Part shown: positions 5,901-60,146 of the stretch, piece by piece
Layout of the letters: the number at the start of each line of letters is the position of its first letter
Position numbering within the stretch: the stretch's first letter is position 1
Source of the DNA: Leptolyngbyaceae cyanobacterium
Lineage (GTDB): Bacteria; Cyanobacteriota; Cyanobacteriia; Phormidesmidales; Phormidesmidaceae
Assembly (NCBI GenBank): GCA_965263355.1
Contig: CBDHHL010000032.1
Span: 1,888,001-1,952,000 of the forward strand
DNA: 64,000 nt
Direction of reading: 5' to 3'
Position numbers and translations under genes: made by a program
The notes under the pieces: model-generated
Databases searched by the model: none
The model's input: only the letters and a program-made list of their open reading frames with translations
Told to the model about the DNA's origin: nothing

Positions 5901-6137
5901 ATGGGTGGATTTGATGCGGTGGTATCCGATGTTGAAATGCCTCATTTAGACGGCTTTTCCCTGGCCACCAAAATACGCCAGCAACAGGAGTATGAGGATC
6001 TGCCAATCATTTTGGTAACCACCTTGGATTCTGAAGCCGACCGCCAACGGGGGGCTAACGCTGGGGCCAATGCTTATATTCTTAAAGGTCGATTTAACCA
6101 GGATGCACTTTTAGAAACGTTAGAACGATTAATTTGA
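2985..6137 (+). CDS. cheA: Hybrid CheA histidine kinase (3 Hpt, HATPase, CheW, REC)
   Basis: Hpt motifs LHGLKG, THSLKG, AHSLKG; HLVRNAIDHGIE; ISGRGVGLDVV; C-terminal receiver (LLVEDS...SDVEMP). Confidence 0.95.
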   Translation: MMIQDEELRLLYQETNTVRLQKIQMGLLQLEQEPNNQTTIEDVRQELHGLKGDSSCLGLDAIATIAQELETVVKTLQLQQLKFTLEVSDCLYQGIYMIEQLASESLTGELSGLDYEQSLTALTTTIASVMAAVQSEDAAIQLRSIYIEDDELREIYRITSSRRLYTLETSLSKLENEITNAEVLEVLRRETHSLKGDSRVVGLESIGDLIQLLENVVKAIQRQSMSFTTDVNDYLQDGFQTIGQLVHAATSGDPISIDIDQTLVKFTAATPALVSFPTALDDETIDPGETTVATVDPVNGITRISDVTFNGTDGRADGHGGNVPEIAGLIADHELREIYQITSVERLERLENNLLYLEKHPNDNGALSTLLREAHSLKGDARSAGVESVETLAHAMEDILSQIQRQTLPLDSVVSDRLYEGLDAIGAYVQEAVTGLPVNLDIDQLLQGLRDTLTSDALQEEDSQSAPADSLAVVENQPEAGTQVETVRVHTRDLDALINQTEELAVTRIQIAQVASQSEQLITLWEEWQANKDQQQVASIPSYEERLEELILSLGLAVQNNSSRLESISETLRDRIRQLQLLPMSTLFQPLRRIVRDLAKAQSKDINLVFEGENTMADKRLLDGIKDAMLHLVRNAIDHGIETPAEREAMDKPAEANLCIKTYQTAISLTIEITDDGRGLDPEKIKQTAIKRKLHTQEELEAMPISQIQRLILTPGFSTRSFITEISGRGVGLDVVRSQVENLKGAIQIESTQGQGCTFRLQLSTALSTANVVLAETEGMTFAIPIEFLETTLLVSPEQIVDQEGQDTIVASGNQRIPIVELTSTLEISNSPIYDWVAQPSTYSGSARPCLVLKVGNDQAGFLVDRLLNNQEVVVKPLGSLLKRVRNVSSTTILSTGDVCMILNPPDLLKSLQQLPISDPSAKPKVALRHKPIILLVEDSPPVRIQEKRLFESAGYTVVTATDGLEGYNMLQMGGFDAVVSDVEMPHLDGFSLATKIRQQQEYEDLPIILVTTLDSEADRQRGANAGANAYILKGRFNQDALLETLERLI

Positions 6138-6163
6138 TTTTATTCAGCAAAAGATAACTGCGC

Positions 6164-7219
6164 ATGTCTATCCGTGTCCTATTGGTTGAAGATTCACCCA
6201 TTGCCATGATGATCTTGAAACGGATTTTAACCTCAGCCCCTGAGATTGAAATCGTAGGAACGGCACGTACTGGTCAGGAAGGACTTGATCTTATCCCCAG
6301 GATTCAACCTGATGTAATTTGTACGGACTTTTTCATGCCCCAGATGAATGGTCTGGAATTTACAGTCCATGTCATGGTTGATTATCCTTTACCCATATTG
6401 GTGGTCAGTGCCTCAGTTCAAGAGGATGATCCCTTACGAGTTTTTCAGCTGCTAGACGCTGGGGCTTTAGATATATTACCAAAGCCTAAAACGGGGTTAG
6501 ATCCTGACAATGTGTTACTTCAGCAAACGCTGATCAACAAAGTTAAGGTTCTATCTGGAGTTAAGGTTTTCAGAAAAAGGCGATCGCACCTAAAACATCT
6601 CCAACAGCCTGCCCCCTCCCAACTAAAACAACCTATCCTTAACCTGTGCAATCTCAAGATTATGGCTGTCGGCGCTTCAACTGGTGGGCCATTGGCCCTA
6701 CAACAATTATTTATGGGGCTACCCAAACCCTTCCCATTACCGATTGTCTGTGTTCAGCATATTAGCCAAGGATTTCTGCAAGGGCTGATTGACTGGTTAT
6801 CAACCACTTGTGGGGTTGATATTGAAATTGCTCAAGCAGGCGAACGACCACAGCCAGGTAAAATCTATTTTCCACCGGAGCGTCAACATCTCACCATTAA
6901 TAAACGGGGTCAATTTGTTCATACCCAGGCCCGACCCAACGATACCCACTGTCCTTCTGTAGACACATTATTTTTATCGGTTGCTAATTTTTATGGCCGT
7001 AAGTCCATTGGTATTTTGCTCTCGGGCATGGGTCGTGATGGAGCCGATGGGCTAAAAGCAATGGTTGATGCTGGCGGATCAACCATTGCCCAGGATGAAG
7101 AAACCTCAGTGGTATTTGGCATGCCAAAGGCCGCTATTGAACTTGGTGCAGCTAATCAAGTGTTACCCATGGCTGCGATCGCACCTGCCATTATCAAGCT
7201 AGTCAGCCATGTCAATTAA
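6164..7219 (+). CDS. cheB: Chemotaxis methylesterase CheB (REC + esterase)
   Basis: N-terminal REC domain; GASTGGP, VQHI and GMGRDGA catalytic motifs. Confidence 0.95.
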   Translation: MSIRVLLVEDSPIAMMILKRILTSAPEIEIVGTARTGQEGLDLIPRIQPDVICTDFFMPQMNGLEFTVHVMVDYPLPILVVSASVQEDDPLRVFQLLDAGALDILPKPKTGLDPDNVLLQQTLINKVKVLSGVKVFRKRRSHLKHLQQPAPSQLKQPILNLCNLKIMAVGASTGGPLALQQLFMGLPKPFPLPIVCVQHISQGFLQGLIDWLSTTCGVDIEIAQAGERPQPGKIYFPPERQHLTINKRGQFVHTQARPNDTHCPSVDTLFLSVANFYGRKSIGILLSGMGRDGADGLKAMVDAGGSTIAQDEETSVVFGMPKAAIELGAANQVLPMAAIAPAIIKLVSHVN

Positions 7220-7257
7220 CCAAATCACACCCTGATTGAACCTACAATAAAACAAAC

Positions 7258-8358
7258 GTGTCATCAATAAAGCCCCTTAGCCCACGCATAAAACAGGCGT
7301 TTACTCAGTTAATCGCCGAACGAATTGGTGTCACTCTCAGAAAAAATGATTATGCGAGTTTTCAAGATTTTATCTTAAACAGAATTAAAGCTTTAAAATT
7401 AAATTTACCCGAAGAATATTATCTGTTGCTCCATGCCAATACCTGTCAAAGTCATCAAGAATGGGAGCTACTTGTTTCAGACGTTACTAATACTGAGAGC
7501 TTCTTTTTTCGAGATAAGGGACAGTTCAAACTACTCAAAGATTACATTTTTCCAAGTATAATCGCTCACAAATCCCATCAGAAAAAACTTCAGATTTGTA
7601 GTGCTGGATGTTCAACGGGGGAGGAACCCTATTCCATTGCTATCTTGCTTAAAGATATTATTCCAGATCTCCAGGATTGGGCTATAAAAATTGTCGGAGT
7701 TGATGTTAATGCAGCTGCGATTCAGGTGGCTCAACAGGGTACTTATCGCAACTGGTCTTTTAGGGGAATAGACAAAGCCCTGCAACAACGTTTTTTCAAA
7801 GAAGACAACAATTATTATCATATTAATGCTGATATTAAAGCGATGGTCGACTTCCAGATCGGAAATTTGCTAGACGACTCATTGTTAGCTCCATTTGCCA
7901 AGCTTAAAGATATGGATTTGATCCTATGTCGAAATGTCTTTATTTATTTTAATAACTCAGCCATTGAAAAAGCCGTACATAAAATCTATGATGCCCTTTG
8001 TCCATCAGGATACTTGCTCGTTGGTCATACAGAGCTTTATGGCCAAAACTCAAACAAATTTCACATCAAAATGTTTGAAGAGTCCATTGCATACCAGCGA
8101 CCTGAAAGTGATTCAGTTCAACCTATATCTGAATTTTTGTCGATGCAGATGCCTTCTGCCTCACCTCACTTTATTGAAGCCAAATCCGATCAACAGGATT
8201 TGGGGGAATTGTTCAAAGGAAATGACATCAAAATGCATAAAACAGCCCTTAATTTGTTACGACAACTCCCCAGTGGCAGCAGAATACCTAAGCTCGGTAA
8301 TCGCACGGCTTCAGAGTTAATTGCACAGCTTGAAAAGAATCTTGAAGATACTGATTAG
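7258..8358 (+). CDS. cheR: Chemotaxis methyltransferase CheR
   Basis: ESFFFRD, SAGCSTGEEPYS, DLILCRNVFIYF, GYLLVGHTE. Confidence 0.95.
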   Translation: MSSIKPLSPRIKQAFTQLIAERIGVTLRKNDYASFQDFILNRIKALKLNLPEEYYLLLHANTCQSHQEWELLVSDVTNTESFFFRDKGQFKLLKDYIFPSIIAHKSHQKKLQICSAGCSTGEEPYSIAILLKDIIPDLQDWAIKIVGVDVNAAAIQVAQQGTYRNWSFRGIDKALQQRFFKEDNNYYHINADIKAMVDFQIGNLLDDSLLAPFAKLKDMDLILCRNVFIYFNNSAIEKAVHKIYDALCPSGYLLVGHTELYGQNSNKFHIKMFEESIAYQRPESDSVQPISEFLSMQMPSASPHFIEAKSDQQDLGELFKGNDIKMHKTALNLLRQLPSGSRIPKLGNRTASELIAQLEKNLEDTD

Positions 8359-42082: not shown

Positions 42083-42154
42083 GCCAACGTGGCTCAGTGG
42101 TAGAGCACTCGATTCGTAATCGAGCGGTCACGGGTTCAAATCCCGTCGTTGGCT
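42083..42154 (+). tRNA. tRNA-Thr(CGT)
   Basis: Acceptor stem GCCAACG/CGTTGGC; D-arm GCTCAGTGGTAGAGC; anticodon arm CTCGA-TTCGTAA-TCGAG; T-loop GGTTCAAATCC. Confidence 0.97.
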
Positions 42155-42319: not shown

Positions 42320-43474
42320 ATGCCCCCACCAAAAGCACCGAAAACGCCGTCAGGCAAGGCACCTAAGGGGACCGTTCAGGTAGTTGCATCCCATGGACGT
42401 CTGCAGCTTCGATTTCGTCATCAGGGCAAACGTCGATATCTCTCCATTGGTCTCCCCGACTCTCCTACTAACCGAATTGTTGCCCAACAAACTGCCGGTC
42501 AAATTCAACTCGATATTATCTCTGGCAACTTTGACAACACGCTAGCAAAGTATAAACCTACAGCCAATCAACCCCAAGAGAAAGTTACCGTAGAAATCCC
42601 CTCAGTGTCGGAGCTGTGGGATAGTTTTTGTGAAATCAAACGCCAAACTGTTGCACCGGGTACATGGCGTAATGGATATTGTGTGAACACCCGCCATTTA
42701 ACCCGGTGTCCCTACAAAAAATTAGAGGATGCACAAAAAATTTACGACTGGGCAGTTACAACCTTAAAACCAGATCCAGCCAGACGGCTTATTCAGGCTT
42801 TGTCATCCTGTTGTAAATGGGCAAAGCGGGCCAATTTGATTGAGACTAATCCCTTTGAAGGGTTATCTGCAGAAATCAAAATCCCCAAAAAGTCTGCTGA
42901 AAACAACGATATTGATCCCTTCACACAAGCAGAACGGCAGACAATTATTGAGGCGTTCACCCAAAGCAAATATTATGCCCACTACACGTCGCTAGTAAAA
43001 TTCCTGTTTTTTACGGGCTGCCGTCCATCCGAAGCGGCTGGTCTGCAGTGGAAACATATTTCACCGCAGGAAATTGTTTTTGATCAGGCAGTAGTTGATT
43101 CTGTCTATGGGAGAGTCTTGAAAGAGGGGTTGAAAACCCAGTCCAAACGAAAGTTTCCAATTAACCGACAACTTCATAAGTTGTTGTCAGAACTCCGGAC
43201 CCCAGATGTCAAAGTAGACGATTTTGTTTTTCCCAGTCCAAATGGAAACTATTTGAACTGTCAGAATTTTCGCAGTCGTGGATGGACACCTATTTTGGCA
43301 CAGTTAGGTATCCGTTATCGTAAGCCTTATCAGGCTCGGCATACTTTTATTACCCATTGCTTGCAAGAAGGCATTAGCGTACAACAGGTAGCTAAATGGG
43401 TAGGTAACTCACCTGAGATCATCATGAAGCACTACGCTGGTATCTTAGAGCAACTCCAGGTGCCTGAAATTTAG
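42320..43474 (+). mobile_element. Tyrosine recombinase/integrase with N-terminal arm-binding domain
   Basis: GRLQLRF...RRYLSIG arm domain; TGCRPSE, LKT, YQARHTF, VGNSPEIIMKHY; starts about 165 bp after the tRNA. Confidence 0.92.
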
Positions 43475-43493: not shown

Positions 43494-43532
43494 ACTACTT
43501 ATTTACGAATCGAGTGTTCGCAAATAAGTAGT
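43494..43532. terminator. Hairpin after the integrase
   Basis: actacttatttacgaa...ttcgcaaataagtagt. Confidence 0.55.
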
Positions 43533-48537: not shown

Positions 48538-49314
48538 CTAAGTTAATACTTTATTAGGTAAATCATTTGCAACACTTTGAGCTTCAACCAATGCATTAAT
48601 CTCGGTCCATTCGCTAGGTGTTAATGGTTCTACTTGAAATGCTGCGTCAAAGCATGTTGTTGCAGCTGCCGTTAACGTTGAAATAATGTCAGGTATTTGG
48701 TCCGCTATGCCATGGTTAATCAAGGCCGGAATCTGTGGTGGGGCTTGCCCAAACACTTGCATAAACAAGCCCGAATCAGGATTGAGGAGCATTGAGCCAT
48801 GTTGTAAGACCCATTGTTTTTGACAGTACTGAGCACTGCCGATAAACTTGCTGCCAAAGTTATCAATTAAGTCCGCTGTGGTGGCTAGGCCAAAACAGTT
48901 TTGTGACTTGATGTAGGCGCGATCAGGGTCGCCAAATTGCAAATTTACCCCCAGCTTAGCCCAGCCGACAATTAAAAACTCACATAGGGCTCGATACCCT
49001 GCTGTGCGATTGAGGCTAGGCTGCTGGGTCACCAGTGCATAGGTTAAATCTCCCTGATGCAATACGCCCCGCCCACCACTGGGGCGCTGCACCAGGGAGA
49101 TCGGTTGCCCCTGCCAGGTGATCGAACGCCAATGCTCTGGCACCCGTCGCCGCTGACTCCGACCCAATGATATGGCCGGTGGGTTCCAGGTATAAAACCG
49201 CAGGGTGGGTGGATGCCCCTGCTGCTGTTGCTGGAGTAGCCAAGAGTCAATGGCCATCTGCACCGGACCTGGGGCATCGAGTAGAGGAATCAGTCGCCAA
49301 GGCGTCATAGTCAT
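48538..49314 (-). CDS. Lipoate-protein ligase A / octanoyltransferase family protein
   Basis: QMAID, LRFYTW, RPSGGRGVLH, KFIGSAQ, LQHGS. Confidence 0.9.
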   Translation of the reverse strand: MTMTPWRLIPLLDAPGPVQMAIDSWLLQQQQQGHPPTLRFYTWNPPAISLGRSQRRRVPEHWRSITWQGQPISLVQRPSGGRGVLHQGDLTYALVTQQPSLNRTAGYRALCEFLIVGWAKLGVNLQFGDPDRAYIKSQNCFGLATTADLIDNFGSKFIGSAQYCQKQWVLQHGSMLLNPDSGLFMQVFGQAPPQIPALINHGIADQIPDIISTLTAAATTCFDAAFQVEPLTPSEWTEINALVEAQSVANDLPNKVLT

Positions 49315-49360
49315 GAAGGAAGGGGGCTAAAAGAACGATTTTAGGGTGCTGTAATCATTC

Positions 49361-49924
49361 CTATTCTTTTATGTGTTCAGAATAAGCTGCTGCATCAAGC
49401 AGTGTATCTAGTTCACTTGGATCGCTCATCTCAATAACGACGAACCATCCCTCACCATAGGGATCTTGGTTGACGGTTTCAGGGTAATCCTCTAACGTAG
49501 CATAGTTAACGCTTACAACAGTGCCTGAAACCGGCGCATAAAGATCACTTGCAGCTTTGACAGATTCGACGACACCCATCTGATCGCCACCTTCAAGGGT
49601 CGCACCTTCCTCAGGCAGTTCAACATAAACTATATCGCTCAACGAAGCTTGAGCATGATCCGTAAAGCCTACAACGACCCGATTCCCATCTACTCTGACC
49701 CATTCATGAGAGCTGAGATAAAGCAATTCACTGGGGACTTGAGAGGCCAGCAGATCCGTGGACTGGCTAAGATTGGGATCAGTTTTGATAGAAGACGCTT
49801 TTGAATTAGATTCAGCTACAGAGTTCTGTTGTGAAGTGGTGACTGCTAAGGCAGAATCAGTCGAAGCAGTAACAGCAACAGTACCACCTAATACAACAGT
49901 TATAACTCGTAAGACTTTCTGCAT
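49361..49924 (-). CDS. gcvH: Glycine cleavage H-protein homologue with N-terminal signal-like extension
   Basis: HEWV, GFTDHAQ, ESVKAASD (lipoyl Lys), VNQDPYGEGW; preceded by about 60 extra residues. Start at 49924, 49942 or 49954. Confidence 0.88.
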   Translation of the reverse strand: MQKVLRVITVVLGGTVAVTASTDSALAVTTSQQNSVAESNSKASSIKTDPNLSQSTDLLASQVPSELLYLSSHEWVRVDGNRVVVGFTDHAQASLSDIVYVELPEEGATLEGGDQMGVVESVKAASDLYAPVSGTVVSVNYATLEDYPETVNQDPYGEGWFVVIEMSDPSELDTLLDAAAYSEHIKE

Positions 49925-50457
49925 CAGTTCTGGTTGACCCATAATTGAATTCACTTATAACAACAGTAATTATCATAGCCATAAAAAGAGATAAATAACG
50001 TCGTAAAAGTCTGATCGTTTGAGATAACTTTGAAATATCTAGAGCCTGCTCACTAAAGACAAAGGTTAATGCCATAAACGTCTATGCTGAGGTGATTCGA
50101 TAGATGGTGTTTAAGGCTATATCTGAGATTGTTGTCACAGCGACATACTGAACTACGGTATTTGTATTTTTAAACGGACATTGTTCACATGCTCTAAATC
50201 TCTGTTGTCTAAAACCACCTCAGCAATGAGCAGACTTTTCATACTTTTTAGACATTCTGTTAGCGCTATATTGTGAACGGCACTGTGGATGGGAAAGAAT
50301 GTGTGCGTCTTTGAGTATGAACGTGCATTCTTCTCGTTCAGATCCTCAAATGATTCTAAATTGAGTGCTTTAAAGACCACGGTATTCAACCAGTTGGTGC
50401 GATCTCATCTCGATTGTTCCAGCATTTGAAAACAATAGAAAATGGGAGATTAAGCAT

Positions 50458-51612
50458 ATGTATGAAGACCCAACAGCGATCGTCATTGATAATGGTTCAG
50501 GCTTTATAAAAGCTGGCTTTGCTGGCAAAGATGCTCCTAGCACCATTTTTCCAAGCATCGTTGCTCGACCACAAGACGCGGGAGCAATGCAGCCAAACGA
50601 TGCCTATGTTGGCCATGAAGCCGAGAGTAAGCGAGGGACTTTAGCCATCAATAATCCCATTGAGCATGGCATTGTGACCAATTGGGATGATATGGAGAGG
50701 ATCTGGTACCACACGTTTTATAACGAGCTCAAAATCACTCCCGAAGAACACCCTGTATTGCTCACTGCGTCTCCCTTAACTCCGAAGGAACATCGTGAGC
50801 AGATGGTTCGGATAATGTTCGAATCCTTTAATGTTCCAGCACTTTACATAACAACTGCCCCCGTGCTTGCGCTCTACGCAGCTGGACGCACAACCGGAAT
50901 CGTTGTTGACATCGGCGATGGTGTGACCCACGTAGTCCCCGTTTATGAAGGAGATGTGTTGCCCCATGGCATTATACGCTTAGATTTAGCAGGGAGAAGC
51001 TTGACGGACTATATGGTCAAACTCCTGAATGAAAGGGGGTATAACTTGAGCACCGCTGCAGAGCGAACCATTGTGCAAGACGTCAAAGAGACATTAGCGT
51101 ATACGGCCCTTGATTTTGAACAGGAAATGCAAACAGCAGCATCGAGCAGTAGCCTTGAGAAGAGCTACGAAGTGCCAGATGGTCGAGGGGTTATCACGAT
51201 TGGCAATGAGCGTTTCCGTTGCCCTGAGGCATTGTTTCAACCGGCCTTGAGTGGCATGGAGTCAGCTGGAATCCATGAAGCAGTGTGCAACTCCATTGTG
51301 AAATTGAAAGCTGATAGGTACACTGATGAGAACGGGATTTATAAGGATATGCGGAATAGCTTCTACTCCAACATCCTTATGACGGGTGGTTCAACCATGT
51401 TTCCAGGGATAGCAGATCGTATGCAAAAAGAAGTAGGGGCATTGGCTCCCCCCACTGTGAAAATTAAGATTATTGCCCCTCCAGAGCGTCGATATGGAGG
51501 TTGGAAAGGAGGCTCTATCACGGTTAGTCAGAGTACATTTCGACAAATGTGGATCTCTAAACAAGAGTACGACGAAAGTGGTCCCGGCATCGTCCATCGG
51601 CGAGAGTTTTAG
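50458..51612 (+). CDS. Eukaryote-type actin homologue
   Basis: Colinear with conventional actin: [112 protein letters not shown]. It is not MreB, FtsA or ParM. Confidence 0.97.
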
Positions 51613-51670
51613 CATGTTACTAGCCGTGAGCATGTAGATGGGATAGTTATTTCAATCATTGTAGTTGGCA

Positions 51671-51706
51671 ATCGCCCTGAGCAAAGACTTGGGGCGATCG
51701 TTTTTT
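51671..51706 (+). terminator. Rho-independent terminator of the actin gene
   Basis: atcgccctgag-caaaga-cttggggcgat followed by cgtttttt. Confidence 0.7.
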
Positions 51707-51927
51707 ATTATTCAGCTCTGCAACCAGTCCAACACTTCTTCTATTGCCAGTTGAACAAATGACTAATGGTGAATATAGAAGGCAATCGATAAAAAATGGG
51801 CGGCCTCAATGAATGAAACCGCCACAATCTGAGCTTTTAGTAAAGATTTGTTGGTGATAAGGGCTGTTATCCCGTATTCTTCCTAAAGTGGCTTTAGGAA
51901 AGTTCGATTACCATTGTCCGGAGCAAA

Positions 51928-53256
51928 TCACCTCCCTTCACTAACTTGCTCATACTCAGAGATAAGACTTTGGAGATTACGCTCTGCTTCCCTAAACTGC
52001 TGCTCATTCATCCCTTCATAAGTATAAAAATCAAAAAACTCTTTACGACGAAATAGCGTATCGAACTCTTCGAGCACTCTCAGCAATAAGATCTGGATTG
52101 CAGTTGTGTTGTTTGCAAATGTTGCAGAATACTCCAGGGCAAACGTTGGAATCTCACACACTAAATTATGAACACTATCAGAAATCGATGAGCGGATATA
52201 ATCAGCATTTTCCACCTGAATCTTGGACATCTGTTGGTCCACGTCTCTGCTCGACATGTCTCCTCTAAAACAAGTATAGGCTTTGAGTAACTGCCCTTGG
52301 CGTGGATCAGCAGCAGCCAGCATATTGTCTACGTTGAACATTTGTGGAACCAGTTCTGGTAGAGTTCTCGCCTCATACTGACGACTCCCAATAGAGAGGA
52401 TCGGGGCAAGCCCTGGCGTAATAAACTTCAAATCAGGTGATGGTGCTAGATTAGCCACCATATCTTTTAAGGTCCAGCGGTCTGAATTAGCAAGTGGTAG
52501 CCTCAATGGAACAGTCAAACCACTTATCGTTTGTGCCACAGTATAGTTGATGTCGTTCCAGCTTGGATTTTGTATTCCAAGTGAATGACGACAAGTATTG
52601 TAAAGGTGCTCATTGTCGAAACAAAAGGTTAAATCAGCATTTTTTATGAGATGTTCGATCCCAAGTGTCGCGTTGTAAGCACTGGTGATACTTTTGTCAC
52701 TAGCCGAACTACAGCCTAACTGAGTGGACGAGGGGAAGACAGAAAATGTGACAATTGGTTTTTCTGGATATTCTTCCTTTAATTTAGAAAGTAACAGCGC
52801 CCCCATTCCAGAGCCGGTCCCTCCTCCCAAAGTATGGAGAAGCATAAACCCTTGAAAATTTCGATAGTCAATCGTATCAACTTCCCGGCGAACCCCTTCC
52901 AAGACCTGTTCAATATATTCAGTCCCCTGTGTATAAAAGCCTTTGGCCCAGTTTTTAGTTGTTCCTTCTGCTTTCGTGAAAAAGAAGTTGTCGGGTCGAA
53001 AAATTTCTGCAAAAGAACCGCTACCGTACACCTCAGTAGTCAGCCTATGGTCTAAATCGGCAAGTATTGCTCTGGGAATATATGCACCTCCTGGTACTTT
53101 ATGACAAAAAATCTCAACGTGTTCTCGTTGCCGTTCATCATGTCCACGCCATCTGCGTGTGTGGTCAATCTCATGTTCACGAAAAAACATTTCCCAAAAT
53201 TTACACCCAATTCGGTTGCCACCTTGACCAAGGTGAATGGTAATGATCTCGTTCAT
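51928..53256 (-). CDS. Beta-tubulin-like protein
   Basis: MNEIITIHLGQGGNRIG, YIPRAILADL, IFRPDNF, NWAKGFY, HTLGGGTGSGMG, YNATL, AADPRQG, FRRK...YTYEGM...AERNLQSLISEYEQ. Likely start 53256 (ORF track starts at 53286). Confidence 0.95.
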   Translation of the reverse strand: MNEIITIHLGQGGNRIGCKFWEMFFREHEIDHTRRWRGHDERQREHVEIFCHKVPGGAYIPRAILADLDHRLTTEVYGSGSFAEIFRPDNFFFTKAEGTTKNWAKGFYTQGTEYIEQVLEGVRREVDTIDYRNFQGFMLLHTLGGGTGSGMGALLLSKLKEEYPEKPIVTFSVFPSSTQLGCSSASDKSITSAYNATLGIEHLIKNADLTFCFDNEHLYNTCRHSLGIQNPSWNDINYTVAQTISGLTVPLRLPLANSDRWTLKDMVANLAPSPDLKFITPGLAPILSIGSRQYEARTLPELVPQMFNVDNMLAAADPRQGQLLKAYTCFRGDMSSRDVDQQMSKIQVENADYIRSSISDSVHNLVCEIPTFALEYSATFANNTTAIQILLLRVLEEFDTLFRRKEFFDFYTYEGMNEQQFREAERNLQSLISEYEQVSEGR

Positions 53257-53292
53257 TGTAAAGCTCTTATTTTCTGTTGTCTGCAATATCCA

Positions 53293-53329
53293 ATAGCAGA
53301 AACTCAGCTCAACGGTGAGTTTCTGCTAT
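53293..53329. promoter_or_regulatory. 14-bp perfect inverted repeat upstream of the tubulin gene
   Basis: atagcagaaactca-gctcaacgg-tgagtttctgctat. Confidence 0.6.
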
Positions 53330-53587
53330 CCAAAAACTTAACCCTGAATTCCTAATGAAGTTGCTCAACTTTTGGCCGTGACGTCCGTTTCAACACTCTG
53401 TTGTACCCAAAGTTGTCTTCTCCTCGAACCAAAACAGCACTCCAGTTATCGAGGAATATCATAGGCTAGCTTATCTGCATCTATTCTATTTCCAATAGAC
53501 CCAATGATCTGAGTCTTAGATTGTTTTTTTGATTTTGTCAGCTGTTGCATGATGGGAGTCCTTTCTTCTTATAAGCAGAAGAGATTT

Positions 53588-54319
53588 TTACACCTGTTTT
53601 TTGAGGATAGAGTTCCAGTTTTTTGAGACGTTATAGCCGTACATATCCTGATAGTGTGTATCGATGCTATAGGCATCAGGATGATTCATTAGCCAGCCCC
53701 TCAACTCAGCCATTCTTCGACTTCCCCGCTGGATTAATTCCTGATCGTCCCAATCATCCCAGACCTCCCACAAAAACTGATTGGTGTCTTCGATAATGAG
53801 ATAATCACCAGCCTGTAACCCATGGTGATGAAAATGTTCAAGAATCCCCAATAGATTATCGTGAACATCCTCTATCACTACCCAGGGGTGGGGCAAGGTG
53901 GCCAACAACGTGGCAGGTAAAACCGTCTCAATGTCTCGACAGTCTCCTTCTAAGAAACGGATCCTGGAATCTGTTTTAGCCGTTTTATGGAGCTGGGACA
54001 AATCATGATCAATGCAAATAACCTGACCAGGAATGTAAAACTGCTCCAGCTGATCTGCTAGCCAAAGAGCACTACCGCCTTTGAGTGCCCCCAGCTCAAT
54101 AATGGTTTTGGGTCGCAGCTCATGCAACAGCATAGGATACGCTGCAATTTGCATGGGATCTTTCTCTAAGAGCACCCCTTTCCATTGTTGTAAATAGCCA
54201 TTTTCAGTCAACGGTCTCCAGGCTGACTTAGGCATATCACAACGATCGTCCCGTTCAGAAATTTTGACAAATCGCTTGTTCTCAACAGTCTCTTGCGTAG
54301 ATGAGTTTGATTTCACCAT
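53588..54319 (-). CDS. CmcI (cephalosporin hydroxylase) family methyltransferase-like protein
   Basis: WKGVLLEKDP, LRPKTIIELG...GGSALW, GDYLIIEDT. Confidence 0.88.
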   Translation of the reverse strand: MVKSNSSTQETVENKRFVKISERDDRCDMPKSAWRPLTENGYLQQWKGVLLEKDPMQIAAYPMLLHELRPKTIIELGALKGGSALWLADQLEQFYIPGQVICIDHDLSQLHKTAKTDSRIRFLEGDCRDIETVLPATLLATLPHPWVVIEDVHDNLLGILEHFHHHGLQAGDYLIIEDTNQFLWEVWDDWDDQELIQRGSRRMAELRGWLMNHPDAYSIDTHYQDMYGYNVSKNWNSILKKQV

Positions 54320-54374
54320 GGTATGTTGGCTGTGAAATGGACTTGGATAATGACATCAAGAGGTAAGCGTCCCT

Positions 54375-54450
54375 TGAGCGGAGTCGAAGAAGCGCATCGG
54401 ATAGGCTGTAGCTAACTCCGTTGGGAACGCTTTACGAACGACTCCGCTCA
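54375..54450. repeat. REP-like inverted repeat pair
   Basis: tgagcggagtcg ... cgactccgctca. Confidence 0.6.
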
Positions 54451-54475
54451 GCTAGCGGGTACAATCAGAGAGATT

Positions 54476-54832
54476 TTACTTATAGGTTGCAGCAAACACT
54501 TTGCCTTCCTCGTCTCCACTCCCGTCTTTATTCCATTTCCAGTTAAAGGCATAAATCCAGTAAACGTAGTTAACTGTTTCGCCAGGATTACCAAACTTAT
54601 GGGGAGTATGGGCAGGTGTTTTGAATAACTCACCAACAGCAGGACGATAAACAGTGTCTCGTAACGAGACTTGCACCTCCCCCTCGATTAGAATAATGTA
54701 CTCATCTGTTTTATGACCTGGGTTAGACCAGAACTCTCCCGGTTCAGTTTTGTACAGTTCACACTTAAACCCCTTGGGTTCCCATTCCTGACGGAGTTTT
54801 TCTAGGCCCAGTTCAACGTCTTGTGTATTCAT
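54476..54832 (-). CDS. Cupin-domain protein
   Basis: GHKTDEYIILIEGE...GELFKTPAHTPH. Confidence 0.85.
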   Translation of the reverse strand: MNTQDVELGLEKLRQEWEPKGFKCELYKTEPGEFWSNPGHKTDEYIILIEGEVQVSLRDTVYRPAVGELFKTPAHTPHKFGNPGETVNYVYWIYAFNWKWNKDGSGDEEGKVFAATYK

Positions 54833-54857
54833 GGTTATTTCCTAAGAGTTGACAACA

Positions 54858-55587
54858 TTAACTTCTTTTGAGGATAGAGTTCCAATTCTTTGAAGCATTA
54901 TAGCCAAACATATCTTGGTAATAGCGATCAATCAGATACTCATTGGGATAGTTTATCAGCCAGTTTTTGAGTACATCTGAGTTTGCTTAGCATCCGCTTG
55001 ATGAAGTCTTTATCGTCCCAATCTGACCAAGCTTGCCATAAATCTTGGTTGGTATCTTCAATAATGACGTAATCACCACTACGCAAACCATTGTGATGAA
55101 AGTAATCTAGGAGCCCGTCTACATTAACATGTACATCTTCTACGATTAACCAAGGATGCTCATAGTTAGCCAGTAACTCTGGCGGTAAAATCTCTTCAAT
55201 CTTGTTACAGTCTCCTTCTAAGAAATGAATGCCGGAGTTGTTTCTAGCCCTTTCATCTAGTAAAGACAGATCAATGTCAACCGAGTAAACCTTCCCATCG
55301 ATATCGAACGCCTTTAGCTGGTCGGCTAACCAGACGGCACTCCCCCCCGTCTCTGCCCCCAGCTCAATAATTGTTCTGGGTTGAAGCTCATAGATTAACA
55401 TGGGATAAAGTGCAATCTCGAAAGGGCTTTTATCCATGGATATACCTTTCCAGGTTTGCAGAAGATAATTTTGAGTCAGGGGCCTCCAAATACTGTTAGG
55501 CAGGGTACATCTATCTTGTCGATTGGTGATGCTTACAAACCTCTCTGGCGTAGAAGATGCTGGATTATCAAAAGACTGCATATCCAT
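54858..55587 (-). pseudogene. Second CmcI-family gene, frameshifted
   Basis: One extra base near 54978. The shifted frame reads DVLKNWLINYPNEYLIDRYYQDMFGYNASKNWNSILKRS*, matching the C-terminus of the paralogue. Confidence 0.85.
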
Positions 55588-55592
55588 GGTAA

Positions 55593-56237
55593 TTAGTCCT
55601 TTTTAAAGGCAAGCAGATGCATTAACGTGGTGTCATCATACATGGGGAATGTTTGCTCGCTGACTAGGGTCCACGATAGGTGGTCTAAGGCTGACTGCAT
55701 TTGCTGGCGATAGTCCTGGCGTATGGTTAATAGAAACAGGCCCTGGTCTTTTAAGAGAGTAAAGAGATTGTCTAATACCTTCGGCCCGGCATGGGCGTAG
55801 GCAAACACTCCAGCCGCAATAATCACATCAAAGCTGATTGAATTGCCGAAGATGGGCTCTTCTAGATTTCCTTGATGCAGATTTTGATAAACCTGCTTTT
55901 CTTTGGCAAGTGCTAACATTTTTTCTGATAAATCGACTGCCGTAAGATTGGTATAGCCTTGATTGGAAAGCGCTTCACCCACTAACCCTGTACCAGCACC
56001 GGCATCTAAGATTGCGGCATTTGGATTATCATTAAGTAGTTGGGCTAGTGTGCGAGCTATGTTAACGGGCATAAAAGACCAATCATTTTCTAAATCTACG
56101 TCGTAGGTATTTGCCCAGCTGTCGTATTTATTTTTTAATTCTTCAATACTTTGACTGCCACAGATCTCAGTTAACCAGGGCCTTTTTTCTAAGAAATCTT
56201 TGGCTTGTTCTTCGGGGCCCTGTTTTTTAGTCTCCAT
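55593..56237 (-). CDS. Class I SAM-dependent methyltransferase
   Basis: YDSWANTYD, ILDAGAGTG, VDLSEKML, FDVIIAAGVF. Confidence 0.92.
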   Translation of the reverse strand: METKKQGPEEQAKDFLEKRPWLTEICGSQSIEELKNKYDSWANTYDVDLENDWSFMPVNIARTLAQLLNDNPNAAILDAGAGTGLVGEALSNQGYTNLTAVDLSEKMLALAKEKQVYQNLHQGNLEEPIFGNSISFDVIIAAGVFAYAHAGPKVLDNLFTLLKDQGLFLLTIRQDYRQQMQSALDHLSWTLVSEQTFPMYDDTTLMHLLAFKKD

Positions 56238-56340
56238 GGCATTACACCTTTACTACGTCTTTAAGAACCTTGTTTCTGATGTTTGACCGAATAATTTTCT
56301 CTTCGTAGATATGACAGTTGTGAAATATTATTATATGCCG

Positions 56341-57357
56341 TTAGCAAACTCCGAAAGTAACCCCTAAATCTTTGAGCCATCTGCGATAGGCAATCGACGC
56401 TTTATCAGCTTCAACGTGTTTTTCTGGAGGCCAGGATGAATCATCTCCTCTGTGAGGGAGCAATGGCAAACGAGATGGCCGTTGGGACTCTAGCATACTA
56501 ATATCTTCTCGCATATACTCTTCTGTAGACTCGTAAAACTGTGAGTCAGGCACGTCATGCCCATAGTTTAAAGCGAACGCTAGCCACACCAGACAGCTAT
56601 CTTCCTCGACAGGTGTGGCACTCAAAACCAAAGACACTCGGTCAGAACTATTCTCCATTTCCCGAATGGAGCGCATCATCAAAGGACTATCAATCGTGAT
56701 TGTCCGCATTATGGCCTTACTCAAGGTTCTAACCCCTGTATAGGTGGCATCCACCTGAAAGAACTGGAGGTTGCTAATGGTTACACCGTTTTCATCCCTT
56801 TTTACATCGTATTTGTCGGTCAGGGGATAGCGAGAATCTCCAATAGTGTTGTCATGTAAAAATGCAACATGGGATAGATCGAAATTATTCTCAATTGCCC
56901 GAAATCCACTAACGTTAAATCGATAGGGACCACATATAACCTGACGATAGTCTGGATTATCCCACTCTGGAAATGGAGGTACATCCTGTTCAGGATTTCC
57001 CAAGCTAATCCAAATAAACCCTCTACTTTCCTTACATTGATAGGTTTTTACACAGGTGTTTGGCAGCGGCTGTGTAGGCTGAGATGGAATATGGACGCAT
57101 TTACCCGTGTTTTCATACTGCCAGCCATGATATCTACACGCTAGGTGATCACCAACTATTTTTCCTTGGGACAGCGCCACCCCCCTATGGGGGCACCAAT
57201 CTTGCCAAGCGAGTATAGGAGATTGTGGAGAACTACCACGCCATAGCACAATATCTTCACCCAGAAGTCTCACTGGTTTGACATCACCTGGCTGAATATC
57301 GTCCGTTTTGCCAATGATGTACCAGTCGTTTACTAAAATTGGATCTATTTCAGCCAT
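56341..57357 (-). CDS. Rieske non-heme iron oxygenase, SxtT/SxtH-like
   Basis: CPHRG...CRYHGW Rieske motif; ENNFDLSHVAFLH mononuclear Fe motif; C-terminal AYRRWLKDLGVTFGVC. Confidence 0.9.
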   Translation of the reverse strand: MAEIDPILVNDWYIIGKTDDIQPGDVKPVRLLGEDIVLWRGSSPQSPILAWQDWCPHRGVALSQGKIVGDHLACRYHGWQYENTGKCVHIPSQPTQPLPNTCVKTYQCKESRGFIWISLGNPEQDVPPFPEWDNPDYRQVICGPYRFNVSGFRAIENNFDLSHVAFLHDNTIGDSRYPLTDKYDVKRDENGVTISNLQFFQVDATYTGVRTLSKAIMRTITIDSPLMMRSIREMENSSDRVSLVLSATPVEEDSCLVWLAFALNYGHDVPDSQFYESTEEYMREDISMLESQRPSRLPLLPHRGDDSSWPPEKHVEADKASIAYRRWLKDLGVTFGVC

Positions 57358-57453
57358 GCTTCACTGTTAATTGTTTCTGAAGTACTCATGCGAGGCCTAG
57401 TCACACCATATTCATGTTCGTAGCTGTATATCCAATACCCACGAATAGCTACC

Positions 57454-58461
57454 TTACGAACACATATTCCCAACCACCTCCACAACCGTATCAGGAGGTA
57501 AACGATTTAGGTGCCAGGCTGTAACTTCTTCCCCTGGTATTAAAATTGGACTACCGGGTGGAATTTTCTTAATGCAGCTGCCGCTGATTCTGCCAAGGGC
57601 CTGATCAAGAGACAATTTCTCTTTTGGTGAAAAGAATGCCTGGTTTGGCAAAACTTTGATTTGAGGACAGCGGCTAAAGTAATTAACAGGGAACGGTGTT
57701 TGGACCGCTTTACCCTTAAGAATAGGAACTGCTGTTGCCAGACATTCTCGAATAAATTGAAAATCTTCTTGACTGTGGTTAAACGAAAACAGCAATAACA
57801 GCCCTTCTTCGTTGGCAAATTCGCCATCTAGACCCAGGTCAAACAAAATATCGGCCAGTTCAGTGCCCAACACGCGATCGCTTTTCAAAAAGATCTTCAG
57901 CGGATCGTTGACATCAGGATCATAGGTCAATAGTTGACCATACGTATCTAACTGAGTGCGAAGACGGTCGCATTCACCAATGGCTTGAGCAAACATTGCC
58001 TTCCCTGCTTCTGAGTACCTTCGCTTGATGGCATCTTCAATACTGAGGATCAACAGGTTACTGCGGGTCGTTGCTTCAAATAAAGGAAAATTTCCTCGAT
58101 ACAGATCTTGATAAATGTTTTTCTCTTTGGCAAGTGCTAACATTTTTTCGGATAGATCCACCGCCGTAAGGTTCTTATATCCTTGTTTGGATAGCGCCTC
58201 ACCCACTAGCCCTGTACCAGCACCTGCATCTAAGATTGCGGCATTTGGCTTATTCTTCAACAGTTGGGCTAAAGTGCGCGCTATGGTGACGGGCATAAAG
58301 GACCAATCTTTTTCTAAGTCTGCATCGTAGGTACTAGCCCAGCTATCGTATTTGTCTTTTAATTCCTCAGTACTTTGGCTGTCACAGATCTCATTTAACC
58401 ATGGTCTTTTTTCTAAGAAATCTGTGGCTTGCTCTCTGGTGCTCTGACCTTTAGTCTCCAT
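57454..58461 (-). pseudogene. In-frame chimera: methyltransferase N-half fused to decarboxylase C-half
   Basis: 58090-58461 parallels 55866-56237. About 57490-58088 is near-identical to 58851-59449. The PLP Lys motif SLHK is missing. Confidence 0.8.
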
Positions 58462-58476
58462 AGAATTACCGCTCCA

Positions 58477-58812
58477 CTAATCTAGGTCTAGGGGGCTGCC
58501 AACATCACCTTTATCCCATCCCAATCCCATAAGGAAATAGTAACGACAAAATGTTTTAACTTTAAAGGTATGGAAAATTTTTGCAGGAATAATAAACTCC
58601 TCTCCAATACTGGGATAGTAGGTTTTGTCTTCAAAAAATACTTCTGCTTCTCCCTCTAGGAAAATCAATACCTCATCCGCCTCATGACCTTCACTTTGCC
58701 ATGCCTCTCCTGGTATACCTGTGAGCAGGTCAGCCTTAAAACCTTTTTTGATCCACCGATTTTTTGATTCCTCTATTCCAATATTTGTTTGTGGATTATT
58801 CATGTTTTTCAT
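58477..58812 (-). CDS. Cupin-domain protein (paralogue of 54476-54832)
   Basis: PGEAWQSEGHEADEVLIFLEGE...GEEFIIPAKIFH. Confidence 0.8.
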   Translation of the reverse strand: MKNMNNPQTNIGIEESKNRWIKKGFKADLLTGIPGEAWQSEGHEADEVLIFLEGEAEVFFEDKTYYPSIGEEFIIPAKIFHTFKVKTFCRYYFLMGLGWDKGDVGSPLDLD

Positions 58813-58814
58813 GC

Positions 58815-60146
58815 TTAAATACACTCCAATCTGATAACTTCAACGGTCGTCTCAGGAGATAAACGGTTTAGATGCCAGGCTGTAACTTCTTCCCCTGGTA
58901 TTAAAATTGGACTACCGGGTGGAATTTTCTTAATGCAGCTGCCGCTGATTCTGCCAAGGGCCTGATCAAGAGGTAATTTCTCTTTTGGTGAAAAGAATGC
59001 TTGGTTTGGCAAAACTTTTATTTGAGGACAGCGGCTAAAGTAATTAACAGGGAACGGTGTTTGGACCGCTTTACCCTTAAGAATAGGAACTGCTGTTGCC
59101 AGACATTCTCGAATAAATTGAAAATCTTCTTGACTGTGGTTAAACGAAAACAGCAATAACAGCCCTTCTTCGTTGGCAAATTCGCCATCCAGACCCAGGT
59201 CAAACAAAATATCGGCTAGCTCAGTGCCCAACACGCGATCGCTTTTCAAAAAGATCTTTAGCGGATCGTTAACGTCAGGATCATAGGTCAATACCTGGCC
59301 ATACTGGTCTAGCTGATCGCGAAGACGGTTGCATTCACCAATGGCTTGAGCAAACAGCGTTTTCCCTTCTGCTGAATAGCATCGCTTAATGGCATCTTCA
59401 ATACTGAGGATCAACAGGTTACTACGGGTCGTTGCTTCAAATAAAGGAATAACGCCCATCACCTGCTCGACTGTAAATCGAGACCCCGTCGGTAAATGCA
59501 ACAATGCGGTTTGCACCAAACTGCCGGTGTATTTGTGCAAACTGTGGGTGACAATGTCAGCATGGGTTGCGATCGCAGATGGCCACGGCCCATCTAAAAA
59601 TGGAAAATGGCTGCCGTGGGCTTCATCTACCACGAAGGCAATGTCGTGCTGACGACAATAATCAGATAGATAGGCCAGATCGACGGTAATGCCTTCATAA
59701 CTGGGATGGGTTAGCAGCAGCGCTGACACACCGCTTATTTCCAGCGCTGTAATGATCTCCTCCGTCGTTGGCATCAACGTTTTGGATGGAATAAAGTAGG
59801 GCTCTAATCCAGCCAGGATGATGCCATTGACAGTGGAAATGTGGCTATTGAGCGCGATCGCAACCCGCCTATACTGAGTACCCAACAACGCACAGGCCGT
59901 CAGCACCCCTTGACTTCCCCCACCCGTCAGCCAAAACGTATGGTTAGTGCCATACAGCTGAGAGAAATGTTTCTCTACATGCTCAGTTCGAGTACGCGTC
60001 AAAAACGGTACATCATACTCATACATCTCTTGACTGAGATAAGCACCTGCATGCACCCGACCCTGGTGTGCAGGGGTATAAAGCTTGGCCTGCACATCAG
60101 AGTTATGGCCAGCAATCACATCATACGTAGAGGCAGACTGGTTCAT
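58815..60146 (-). CDS. PLP-dependent Orn/Lys/Arg decarboxylase family protein
   Basis: YTPAHQG, LTHPSYEG, VDEAHGSH, HSLHK, PPGSPILIPGE. Confidence 0.9.
   Translation of the reverse strand: MNQSASTYDVIAGHNSDVQAKLYTPAHQGRVHAGAYLSQEMYEYDVPFLTRTRTEHVEKHFSQLYGTNHTFWLTGGGSQGVLTACALLGTQYRRVAIALNSHISTVNGIILAGLEPYFIPSKTLMPTTEEIITALEISGVSALLLTHPSYEGITVDLAYLSDYCRQHDIAFVVDEAHGSHFPFLDGPWPSAIATHADIVTHSLHKYTGSLVQTALLHLPTGSRFTVEQVMGVIPLFEATTRSNLLILSIEDAIKRCYSAEGKTLFAQAIGECNRLRDQLDQYGQVLTYDPDVNDPLKIFLKSDRVLGTELADILFDLGLDGEFANEEGLLLLFSFNHSQEDFQFIRECLATAVPILKGKAVQTPFPVNYFSRCPQIKVLPNQAFFSPKEKLPLDQALGRISGSCIKKIPPGSPILIPGEEVTAWHLNRLSPETTVEVIRLECI

Follow-up and report, generated by a model that had tools for sequence, protein, structure and literature searches.

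A stretch of 64,000 nt from the chromosome of a Phormidesmis/Leptolyngbya-like cyanobacterium (hereafter the window, whose coordinates are used throughout) contains, side by side and tail to tail, a eukaryote-type actin gene and a beta-tubulin-type gene. The locus is genuine and rare, and it is apparently undescribed. Both genes are strongly diverged from their eukaryotic counterparts and keep open reading frames (ORFs) as well as nucleotide-binding motifs. With moderate confidence, we read them as bacterially adapted, selected descendants of the eukaryotic genes, whose products would form static assemblies of the scaffold type.

Results

Architecture of the locus

The actin gene (50458..51612, plus strand) starts with ATG and encodes 384 aa, whereas the beta-tubulin-type gene (51928..53256, minus strand) encodes 442 aa from its ATG and lacks an acidic C-terminal tail; both are readable without introns or frame breaks. 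The maximal form of the tubulin ORF (51928..53286, minus strand) would give 452 aa from a TTG, but the ATG at 53256 is the likely start, since all relatives of the protein also begin with the residues MNEI. The two stop codons are separated by a spacer of 315 bp (51613-51927), within which two terminator-like hairpins face one another: one 3' of the actin gene (51671..51708, plus strand; 11 pairs, six of them GC, followed by a T-run) and one 3' of the tubulin gene (51789..51823, minus strand; 10 pairs, six GC, and a T-run). Taken alone, these hairpins are modest evidence, because the terminator scan, which places them at 51671-51698 (plus strand) and 51823-51799 (minus strand), found seven hairpin/T-run sites in 4 kb, compared with 3.0 +/- 2.0 in shuffled sequence. 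A Shine-Dalgarno-like GGAG (50445..50448, plus strand) can be read 9 nt ahead of the actin ATG. Bacterial genes lie within a few hundred bases on either side of the block, with GcvH-like, LplA-like and WD40 NTPase genes to the left and methyltransferase, cupin and Rieske oxygenase genes to the right (all by Pfam).

The initial annotation of this DNA, made from the letters alone, had described two intact, intron-less, full-length ORFs converging 315 bp apart, identified end to end as actin and beta-tubulin, with bacterial flanks, a GGAG ahead of the actin gene and a hairpin with a T-run behind it. All of this was borne out by the ORF list, by Pfam and by alignment to solved structures (see below); the end coordinate of 53256 fits the ATG start, and the tubulin gene proved to have a hairpin of its own.

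Authenticity of the locus

Both proteins are encoded on a single contig of 3,935,139 bp. The read evidence comes from three sequencing runs of one study, possibly including the source sample and with no RNA run among those listed, and hence speaks for internal consistency and not for independence. All 30 bins of the stretch were covered in 3/3 runs, and the X1 contigs showed no differences from the window over 49629-51830, which begins within the GcvH-like gene and takes in all of the actin gene, or over 51801-53436, which includes the whole tubulin gene. These runs, each with millions of contigs, resemble mixed samples, and a conceivable alternative is an assembly artefact in which eukaryotic DNA from the sample was joined to bacterial sequence. 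We consider such an artefact extremely improbable, given the contigs that run without a break from the GcvH-like gene to the actin gene, the closeness of bacterial genes on both sides, the lack of introns, the GGAG site, the bacterial-type terminators and a host-like codon usage: the codon scores of actin (-1.188) and tubulin (-1.167) compare with -1.144 +/- 0.032 for the 22 genes left of the nearby tRNA gene, and the GC content at third positions and synonymous codon choice of both genes are within the range of those 22.

The same conclusion follows from the proteins themselves. Among 5.8 billion proteins, the closest to the window actin is 70% identical and the closest to the window tubulin 54%, while the closest eukaryotic proteins reach 70% and about 50%, respectively. 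Near-identity to genes of a co-inhabitant is thus absent, and the genes do not come from a eukaryotic co-inhabitant, because such contaminants would be near-canonical. Contamination is very unlikely, in support of the earlier claim that eukaryote-derived genes are present in a real cyanobacterial chromosome. A single joint in the reads, 51845->53599, would leave out the tubulin gene and was judged unreliable (one contig, a depth of 4.5 and a side of 30 letters); a 98-nt repeat begins at position 53599, and the ends of the joint have no repeat in common.

Evidence for purifying selection

The protein differences to the nearest relative, 30% for actin and 46% for tubulin, arithmetically need at least about 10% and 15% nucleotide change. 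When random change was simulated at 10% of sites (3000 runs each), 1.5% of the actin runs and 0.4% of the tubulin runs kept an open frame; at 20% of sites, 0/3000 and 1/3000 did so. Because the frames are open at this divergence and the nucleotide-binding motifs are kept, purifying selection has presumably acted over most of the history of the genes. The simulations support the initial suggestion that heavy divergence with open frames points to selection, and they argue for the maintenance of both genes in the present or an earlier host.

The actin

The actin matches Pfam Actin (PF00022) at 407.9 bits (cut-off 27), its residues 5-382 covering positions 4-408 of a profile of 410, and among solved structures its residues 3-383 of 384 align to residues 3-374 of 375 of beta-actin (E 1.4e-172). 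Its identity is 70% both to eukaryotic actins and to the cyanobacterial actins of Roseofilum and of a Microcoleus metagenome-assembled genome (MAG), 55% to the ActM-like actin of locus L089 and 45% to a third cyanobacterial type. The alignments show retention of the DNGSG and DxGDGV loops, which we take to be the phosphate-binding loops of actin, and of the His at the actin-161 position. Other features have changed. A134 of the window protein aligns to Q137 of actin, presumably a catalytic-site residue; the DNase-binding loop (D-loop, residues 40-50) is shorter by 3 residues; an 11-residue insertion after position 287 is the protein's own; and the C-terminal Cys (Cys374) is replaced by Glu. 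Several derived residues are common to the window actin and the Microcoleus type, namely PALYI, LT.SP and APV, the last in place of the eukaryotic QAV. Unresolved trees are usual for actin, and ours are no exception; the terminal branch of the window protein measures 0.47 vs a median of 0.021-0.023. Judged by its sequence, this actin is a fast-evolving, long-branch orphan. Its structure model was poor (predicted local distance difference test, pLDDT, 61.7), probably owing to a messy, near-invariant alignment, and was set aside as evidence.

Shortened or missing D-loops are found in four separate cyanobacterial actins (L088, 9732-10859; L089, 5452-6555; L090, 9269-10342; window, 50458-51612), whereas the Roseofilum and Microcoleus types keep a full D-loop. 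Such recurrent shortening may reflect the convergent loss of a canonical filament contact. Separately, the last 86 residues of the window actin score 92.9 bits with the NCBIfam family 'syringactin', well short of its cut-off of 300, a partial match that hints at other fragments of eukaryote-type actin annotated in bacteria. Giant-virus actins (21 loci on viral contigs) are 49-56% identical to the window actin, and no relative of the tubulin was found on the viral contigs searched; a viral origin is unsupported.

The tubulin and its bacterial relatives

The tubulin matches Pfam Tubulin (163.4 bits) and Tubulin_C (65.6 bits). Residues 11-450 of its 452-aa form align to residues 1-427 of beta-tubulin (E 1.3e-125), and 60/60 of the solved-chain matches listed are beta-tubulins. 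Identity is 46-48% to beta-tubulins (48% to an insect one) and 31% to alpha-tubulin; no NCBIfam family matched. The nearest relatives are a handful of proteins from short contigs, 54% identical at best, including P0015, which is named from a cyanobacterial MAG. All of these relatives begin with MNEI where eukaryotic beta-tubulin has MREI, and they have further derived motifs in common; among 267 fetched tubulins, MNEI occurred in 11 and MREI in 105.

In a tree of 38 rows rooted with an alpha-tubulin outgroup, the beta and alpha sides are split with support of 100/100 and the window protein falls on the beta side. It groups with P0012 (100/100), within a five-member subclade that also comprises P0015, P0241 and P0017 (100/99), and all 14 bacteria-associated beta-like rows hold together at 94/92. 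Animal beta-tubulins (86/85) and other eukaryotic beta-tubulins (90/99) form the remaining arms of a three-way split. The terminal branch of the window tubulin is 0.68 vs a median of 0.068. P0015 is far closer to the canon: its identity to insect beta-tubulin is 82%, compared with 85% between the insect and plant beta-tubulins.

When metagenome contigs were scanned for the pattern of the MNEI-type start, four loci were returned, three of which have a second tubulin gene directly upstream. Against alpha-tubulin, the upstream gene of L084 (L084_a) reaches 611 bits, and it comes with a family of relatives of its own; judged by their neighbours, L084 and L087 are bacterial contigs. These operon-like pairs of an alpha-type and a beta-type gene (L084, 7881-11317; L087, 7235-10042; and L085) are much nearer to eukaryotic tubulins than the window copy is. 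At L084 a CVNH-domain gene stands ahead of the pair, and a relative, P0302, is named from Microbulbifer epialgicus.

On this evidence, the window tubulin is a member of a lineage of bacterial beta-tubulin derivatives placed within or beside eukaryotic beta diversity. We infer that the MNEI lineage derives from eukaryotic beta-tubulin and that the window protein is a fast-evolving offshoot of it. The beta-tubulin was probably transferred together with an alpha-tubulin and then spread among bacteria, and since the window tubulin belongs to this bacterial lineage, it probably reached the genome from another bacterium.

Despite its long branch, the window tubulin retains 74/88 columns that are invariant in eight other tubulins, with 14 mostly conservative changes, and it keeps both GGGTGSG and the GQxGN loop. 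It also has a 6-7-residue insertion at about 176-188 and a 2-residue insertion near 134. The predicted structure is confident (pLDDT 90.4, predicted template modelling score 0.92), with disorder at 182-187 only, and the model superposes on solved beta-tubulins with template modelling (TM) scores of 0.93-0.97.

Rarity of the locus

Eukaryote-type actin was found in 3/401 sampled cyanobacterial genomes, with matches down to 44% identity. Tubulin was not found among the genomes searched, that is, in 0/401 sampled cyanobacterial genomes, in 0/172 genomes of the order of the host, in 0/401 genomes of a second order with P0015 as the query, and in 0/5 genome records searched individually. A scan of genome contigs with the window tubulin alone gave nine pattern matches with no relative among them, and actin and tubulin co-occurred in 0/401 sampled genomes.

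The literature searched held no paper on a cyanobacterial tubulin, on an actin-tubulin pairing or on an MNEI-type beta-tubulin lineage, consistent with the initial view that no characterised locus pairs both genes; neither was there a paper on bacterial alpha plus beta tubulin operons such as those of L084, L085 and L087. According to a 2023 paper on tubulin evolution, prokaryotic tubulins are confined to Prosthecobacter and the Odinarchaeota; a paper of 2026 extends the list by tubulins from Asgard archaea and from further Verrucomicrobiota. The word stem "cyanobacteri" is absent from the main texts of both.

Genomic setting

A tRNA-Thr gene (CGT anticodon; 42083..42154, plus strand; ARAGORN, Rfam tRNA 75.1 bits) and, directly following it, a tyrosine recombinase gene of the phage-integrase family (42320..43474, plus strand; Pfam Phage_integrase 54.9 bits, Arm-DNA-bind_2 47.8 bits) lie 8 kb upstream of the actin gene. 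Based upon these two genes and upon the rarity of the locus in sampled genomes, it sits in an accessory stretch of the chromosome, of which the tRNA-Thr gene is a possible opening integration site. A search for an att-like direct repeat of the tRNA-Thr found none that would mark the right border of an island. Read contigs from two samples leave the window sequence at 42092-42128, in the 5' part of the tRNA-Thr gene, with loose ends at 42092-42111, and this divergence suggests either alternative left flanks in co-occurring strains or a second copy of the tRNA gene. Just past the integrase stop codon, at 43503-43519, 16-17 nt match the tRNA-Thr anticodon arm in inverted orientation, and this match may be the remnant of an older integration.

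Farther left, the window holds a che operon and genes of glycogen metabolism, glycogen phosphorylase and phosphoketolase; a Uma2 gene is also present in the window. The best match of the phosphoketolase is to the enzyme of a Phormidesmis MAG (86% identity), and the next ones (74-77%) include cyanobacteria. The nearest locus for a comparison of synteny, L003 (86% phosphoketolase identity), has no neighbouring genes in common with the window.

Nearer to the actin gene, the segment 48538-49954 holds a gene for a GcvH-type lipoyl carrier (NCBIfam GcvH, 166 bits) and, beside it, a short LplA-like ligase gene that scores far under equivalog cut-offs. The carrier has a 70-residue N-terminal extension, in which a signal-like hydrophobic stretch and a linker rich in Ser and Thr can be read. 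On the other side and on the tubulin strand, a tailoring-type cluster at 53588-60146 encodes two CmcI-type and two S-adenosylmethionine methyltransferases, a cupin, a Rieske/VanA-type oxygenase and a pyridoxal phosphate enzyme, and is separated from the tubulin gene by a gap of 331 bp. This cluster contains recent segmental duplications (57476-57775 vs 58837-59136, 96%; 55866-56165 vs 58090-58389, 85%), which gave rise to a chimeric ORF at 57454-58461 that joins a methyltransferase to a decarboxylase C-terminus.

Discussion

Our preferred explanation, to which we assign a somewhat better than even chance as a whole, is that actin and beta-tubulin genes of eukaryotic descent, each transcribed on its own and adapted to a bacterial setting, stand tail to tail in an accessory stretch. 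Both genes would have arrived by horizontal transfer, probably via other bacteria rather than straight from a eukaryote, and purifying selection would have kept them while features useful only in a eukaryotic cell were lost. In the actin, these would be the full-length D-loop, Gln137 and Cys374; in the tubulin, the acidic tail, many lattice and partner surfaces, and the alpha partner. The actin is still predicted to bind ATP and the tubulin GTP. Each protein may then self-assemble into non-canonical, slowly hydrolysing and rather static assemblies that serve as an intracellular scaffold, after the model of ActM of Microcystis. Horizontal acquisition had been proposed in the initial annotation. 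This stands insofar as both genes are eukaryote-derived, although the tubulin is no one-off import but a member of a bacterial lineage, and of the phylogenies it was the tubulin tree that gave a placement, in the bacterial MNEI group, the actin trees being unresolved.

Several observations weigh against this explanation. With Ala at position 137, a D-loop deletion of 3 residues and an insertion of 11, canonical polymerisation of the actin could be lost rather than changed, and its grouping with the Microcoleus-type actin is supported at 74/0 only. The tubulin keeps just 98/162 columns that are invariant in two eukaryotic beta-tubulins and one alpha-tubulin, where P0015 keeps 149/162, and for this reason the canonical tubulin constraints appear largely gone. 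An alpha-type tubulin, a profilin and a second copy were looked for in the 64-kb window and none was found, while several relatives of the tubulin do have an adjacent alpha-type gene. A promoter scan over 4 kb gave one site, overlapping the tubulin ATG, vs 6.8 +/- 2.0 in shuffles. In X3, a loose contig end at 53327 and a low depth across 49161-51113 are weak hints that co-occurring strains may lack one or both genes. Lastly, the intended positive control of the tubulin scans, a Verrucomicrobiota sample, did not work and returned 0/401; the actin query, run in the same way, did give its 3/401.

Many of these same points would be expected if the two genes were passengers, cargo of the island with little or no present function, which either came recently from an unsampled donor in an already diverged state or are drifting toward decay. 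The very long terminal branches of both proteins, the loss of 40% of the beta/alpha-invariant positions in the tubulin, the missing partners, the tRNA and integrase nearby, the hints of presence/absence variation among strains and the failure of the promoter scan to provide the genes with a site of their own all fit such a scenario. We regard it as unlikely, as intact frames over 384 and 442 codons are improbable under drift, the nucleotide-binding motifs are retained, codon usage is host-like, a terminator-like hairpin follows each gene and the tubulin model is confident. Another conceivable role is directed against eukaryotes, with the proteins acting on the cytoskeleton of a grazer or host as interfering subunits, or binding or carrying a metabolite that targets it, instead of forming a scaffold in the cyanobacterium. 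The tubulin gene is the last of the same-strand run of tailoring-type genes at 53588-60146, and cyanobacteria are known to make compounds that target tubulin or actin. However, the 331-bp gap parts the tubulin gene from that cluster, the window contains no polyketide synthase, nonribosomal peptide synthetase or secretion-system gene, neither protein has an N-terminal signal-like segment as read by eye, and the bacterium has no native target to protect, all of which makes a toxin-related role decidedly improbable.

The two genes could be neighbours because they function jointly, were transferred together or entered a common landing site for foreign DNA. The initial annotation took them for one domesticated module with a putative cytoskeletal or host-interaction role. 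A single module is unsupported: the genes are convergent and separately terminated, and their co-occurrence was not seen in the sampled genomes. That the actin and the lone beta-type tubulin are both working polymers in one cell, with adjacency signifying joint function, as in a composite scaffold or compartment, is in our estimation quite unlikely. If true, the organism would be without known precedent among prokaryotes in operating both cytoskeletal systems of eukaryotic descent, and its tubulin would assemble with no alpha subunit as partner.

Few eukaryotic proteins are as conserved as actin and tubulin, and their conservation is usually ascribed to their many partners. Here, a single bacterial genome has both of them without those partners; about 30% of the actin residues and about 50% of the tubulin residues differ, with folds and nucleotide sites kept, which makes the locus a natural experiment for separating the intrinsic features of these proteins from those imposed by the eukaryotic cell. 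It also reveals a lineage of bacterial beta- (and alpha-) tubulin derivatives distinct from the Prosthecobacter pair and bears on how frequently cytoskeletal genes pass from eukaryotes to bacteria. Should the tubulin work without alpha, or the actin with Ala137, either would be a useful minimal biochemical system.

Among known systems, the closest parallel to the actin is ActM/PfnM of Microcystis aeruginosa PCC 7806. According to the published report (PMC3254629), ActM is 65% identical to eukaryotic actin, folds in E. coli and forms ribbon-like polymers and a shell-like layer; as in the window, a strongly diverged eukaryote-type actin (70% in our case) is found in an accessory region of a cyanobacterium. 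The shortened D-loop is likewise common to the window actin, the ActM-like L089 and L088 (G303). At L089 (G159; 5452-7264), actin and profilin genes have an adjoining Uma2 gene, an arrangement as in Microcystis PCC 7806, and ActM-type loci are hence findable in the set of species-representative genomes. Unlike in ActM/PfnM, no profilin is adjacent in the window (best E 9.5 with the L089 profilin in tblastn, where L089 itself has Profilin at 104.5 bits), the window actin is less similar to the L089 actin than to eukaryotic and other cyanobacterial actins, and it has its own 11-residue insertion and a tubulin gene as neighbour.

The tubulin resembles BtubA/BtubB of Prosthecobacter, as described in the literature (PMC2171859, PMC3232192, PMC13394414), in being a eukaryote-like, intron-less bacterial tubulin without the eukaryotic tail. 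Btub is, as those sources have it, an A/B pair accompanied by a kinesin-light-chain-like gene with tetratricopeptide repeats (TPR), whereas the window has a single beta-type gene without a TPR neighbour, flanked instead by the actin gene and a CmcI-type methyltransferase gene. Its best 60 solved-structure matches are all eukaryotic beta-tubulins, and our trees comprise no sequences named as Btub. With the beta-type genes of L084, L085 and L087 it has in common the MNEI start and membership of the same 14-row group; those genes, in contrast, stand next to an alpha-type gene, have diverged far less and in some cases encode an acidic tail.

Compared with canonical actin and beta-tubulin, the two proteins align end to end, keep the nucleotide motifs and, by the model, have the same tubulin fold. 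They differ in falling 30% (actin) and about 52% (tubulin) below full identity, in the altered D-loop, Ala137 and replaced C-terminal Cys of the actin, and in the absent acidic tail (E-hook) and 176-188 insertion of the tubulin; their genes differ in lacking introns and in having a Shine-Dalgarno-like site and hairpins like those of intrinsic terminators. Eukaryotic-type relatives outside eukaryotes are also seen in Asgard tubulins (OdinTubulin, AtubA/B) and in the actins of giant viruses (viractins). The viractins are only distantly similar to the window actin, and in trees in which no Asgard tubulin stands under a name, the window tubulin falls inside the beta family against the alpha outgroup. 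What is apparently new relative to ActM and BtubA/B is the pairing of an actin with a beta-tubulin in one bacterial chromosome.

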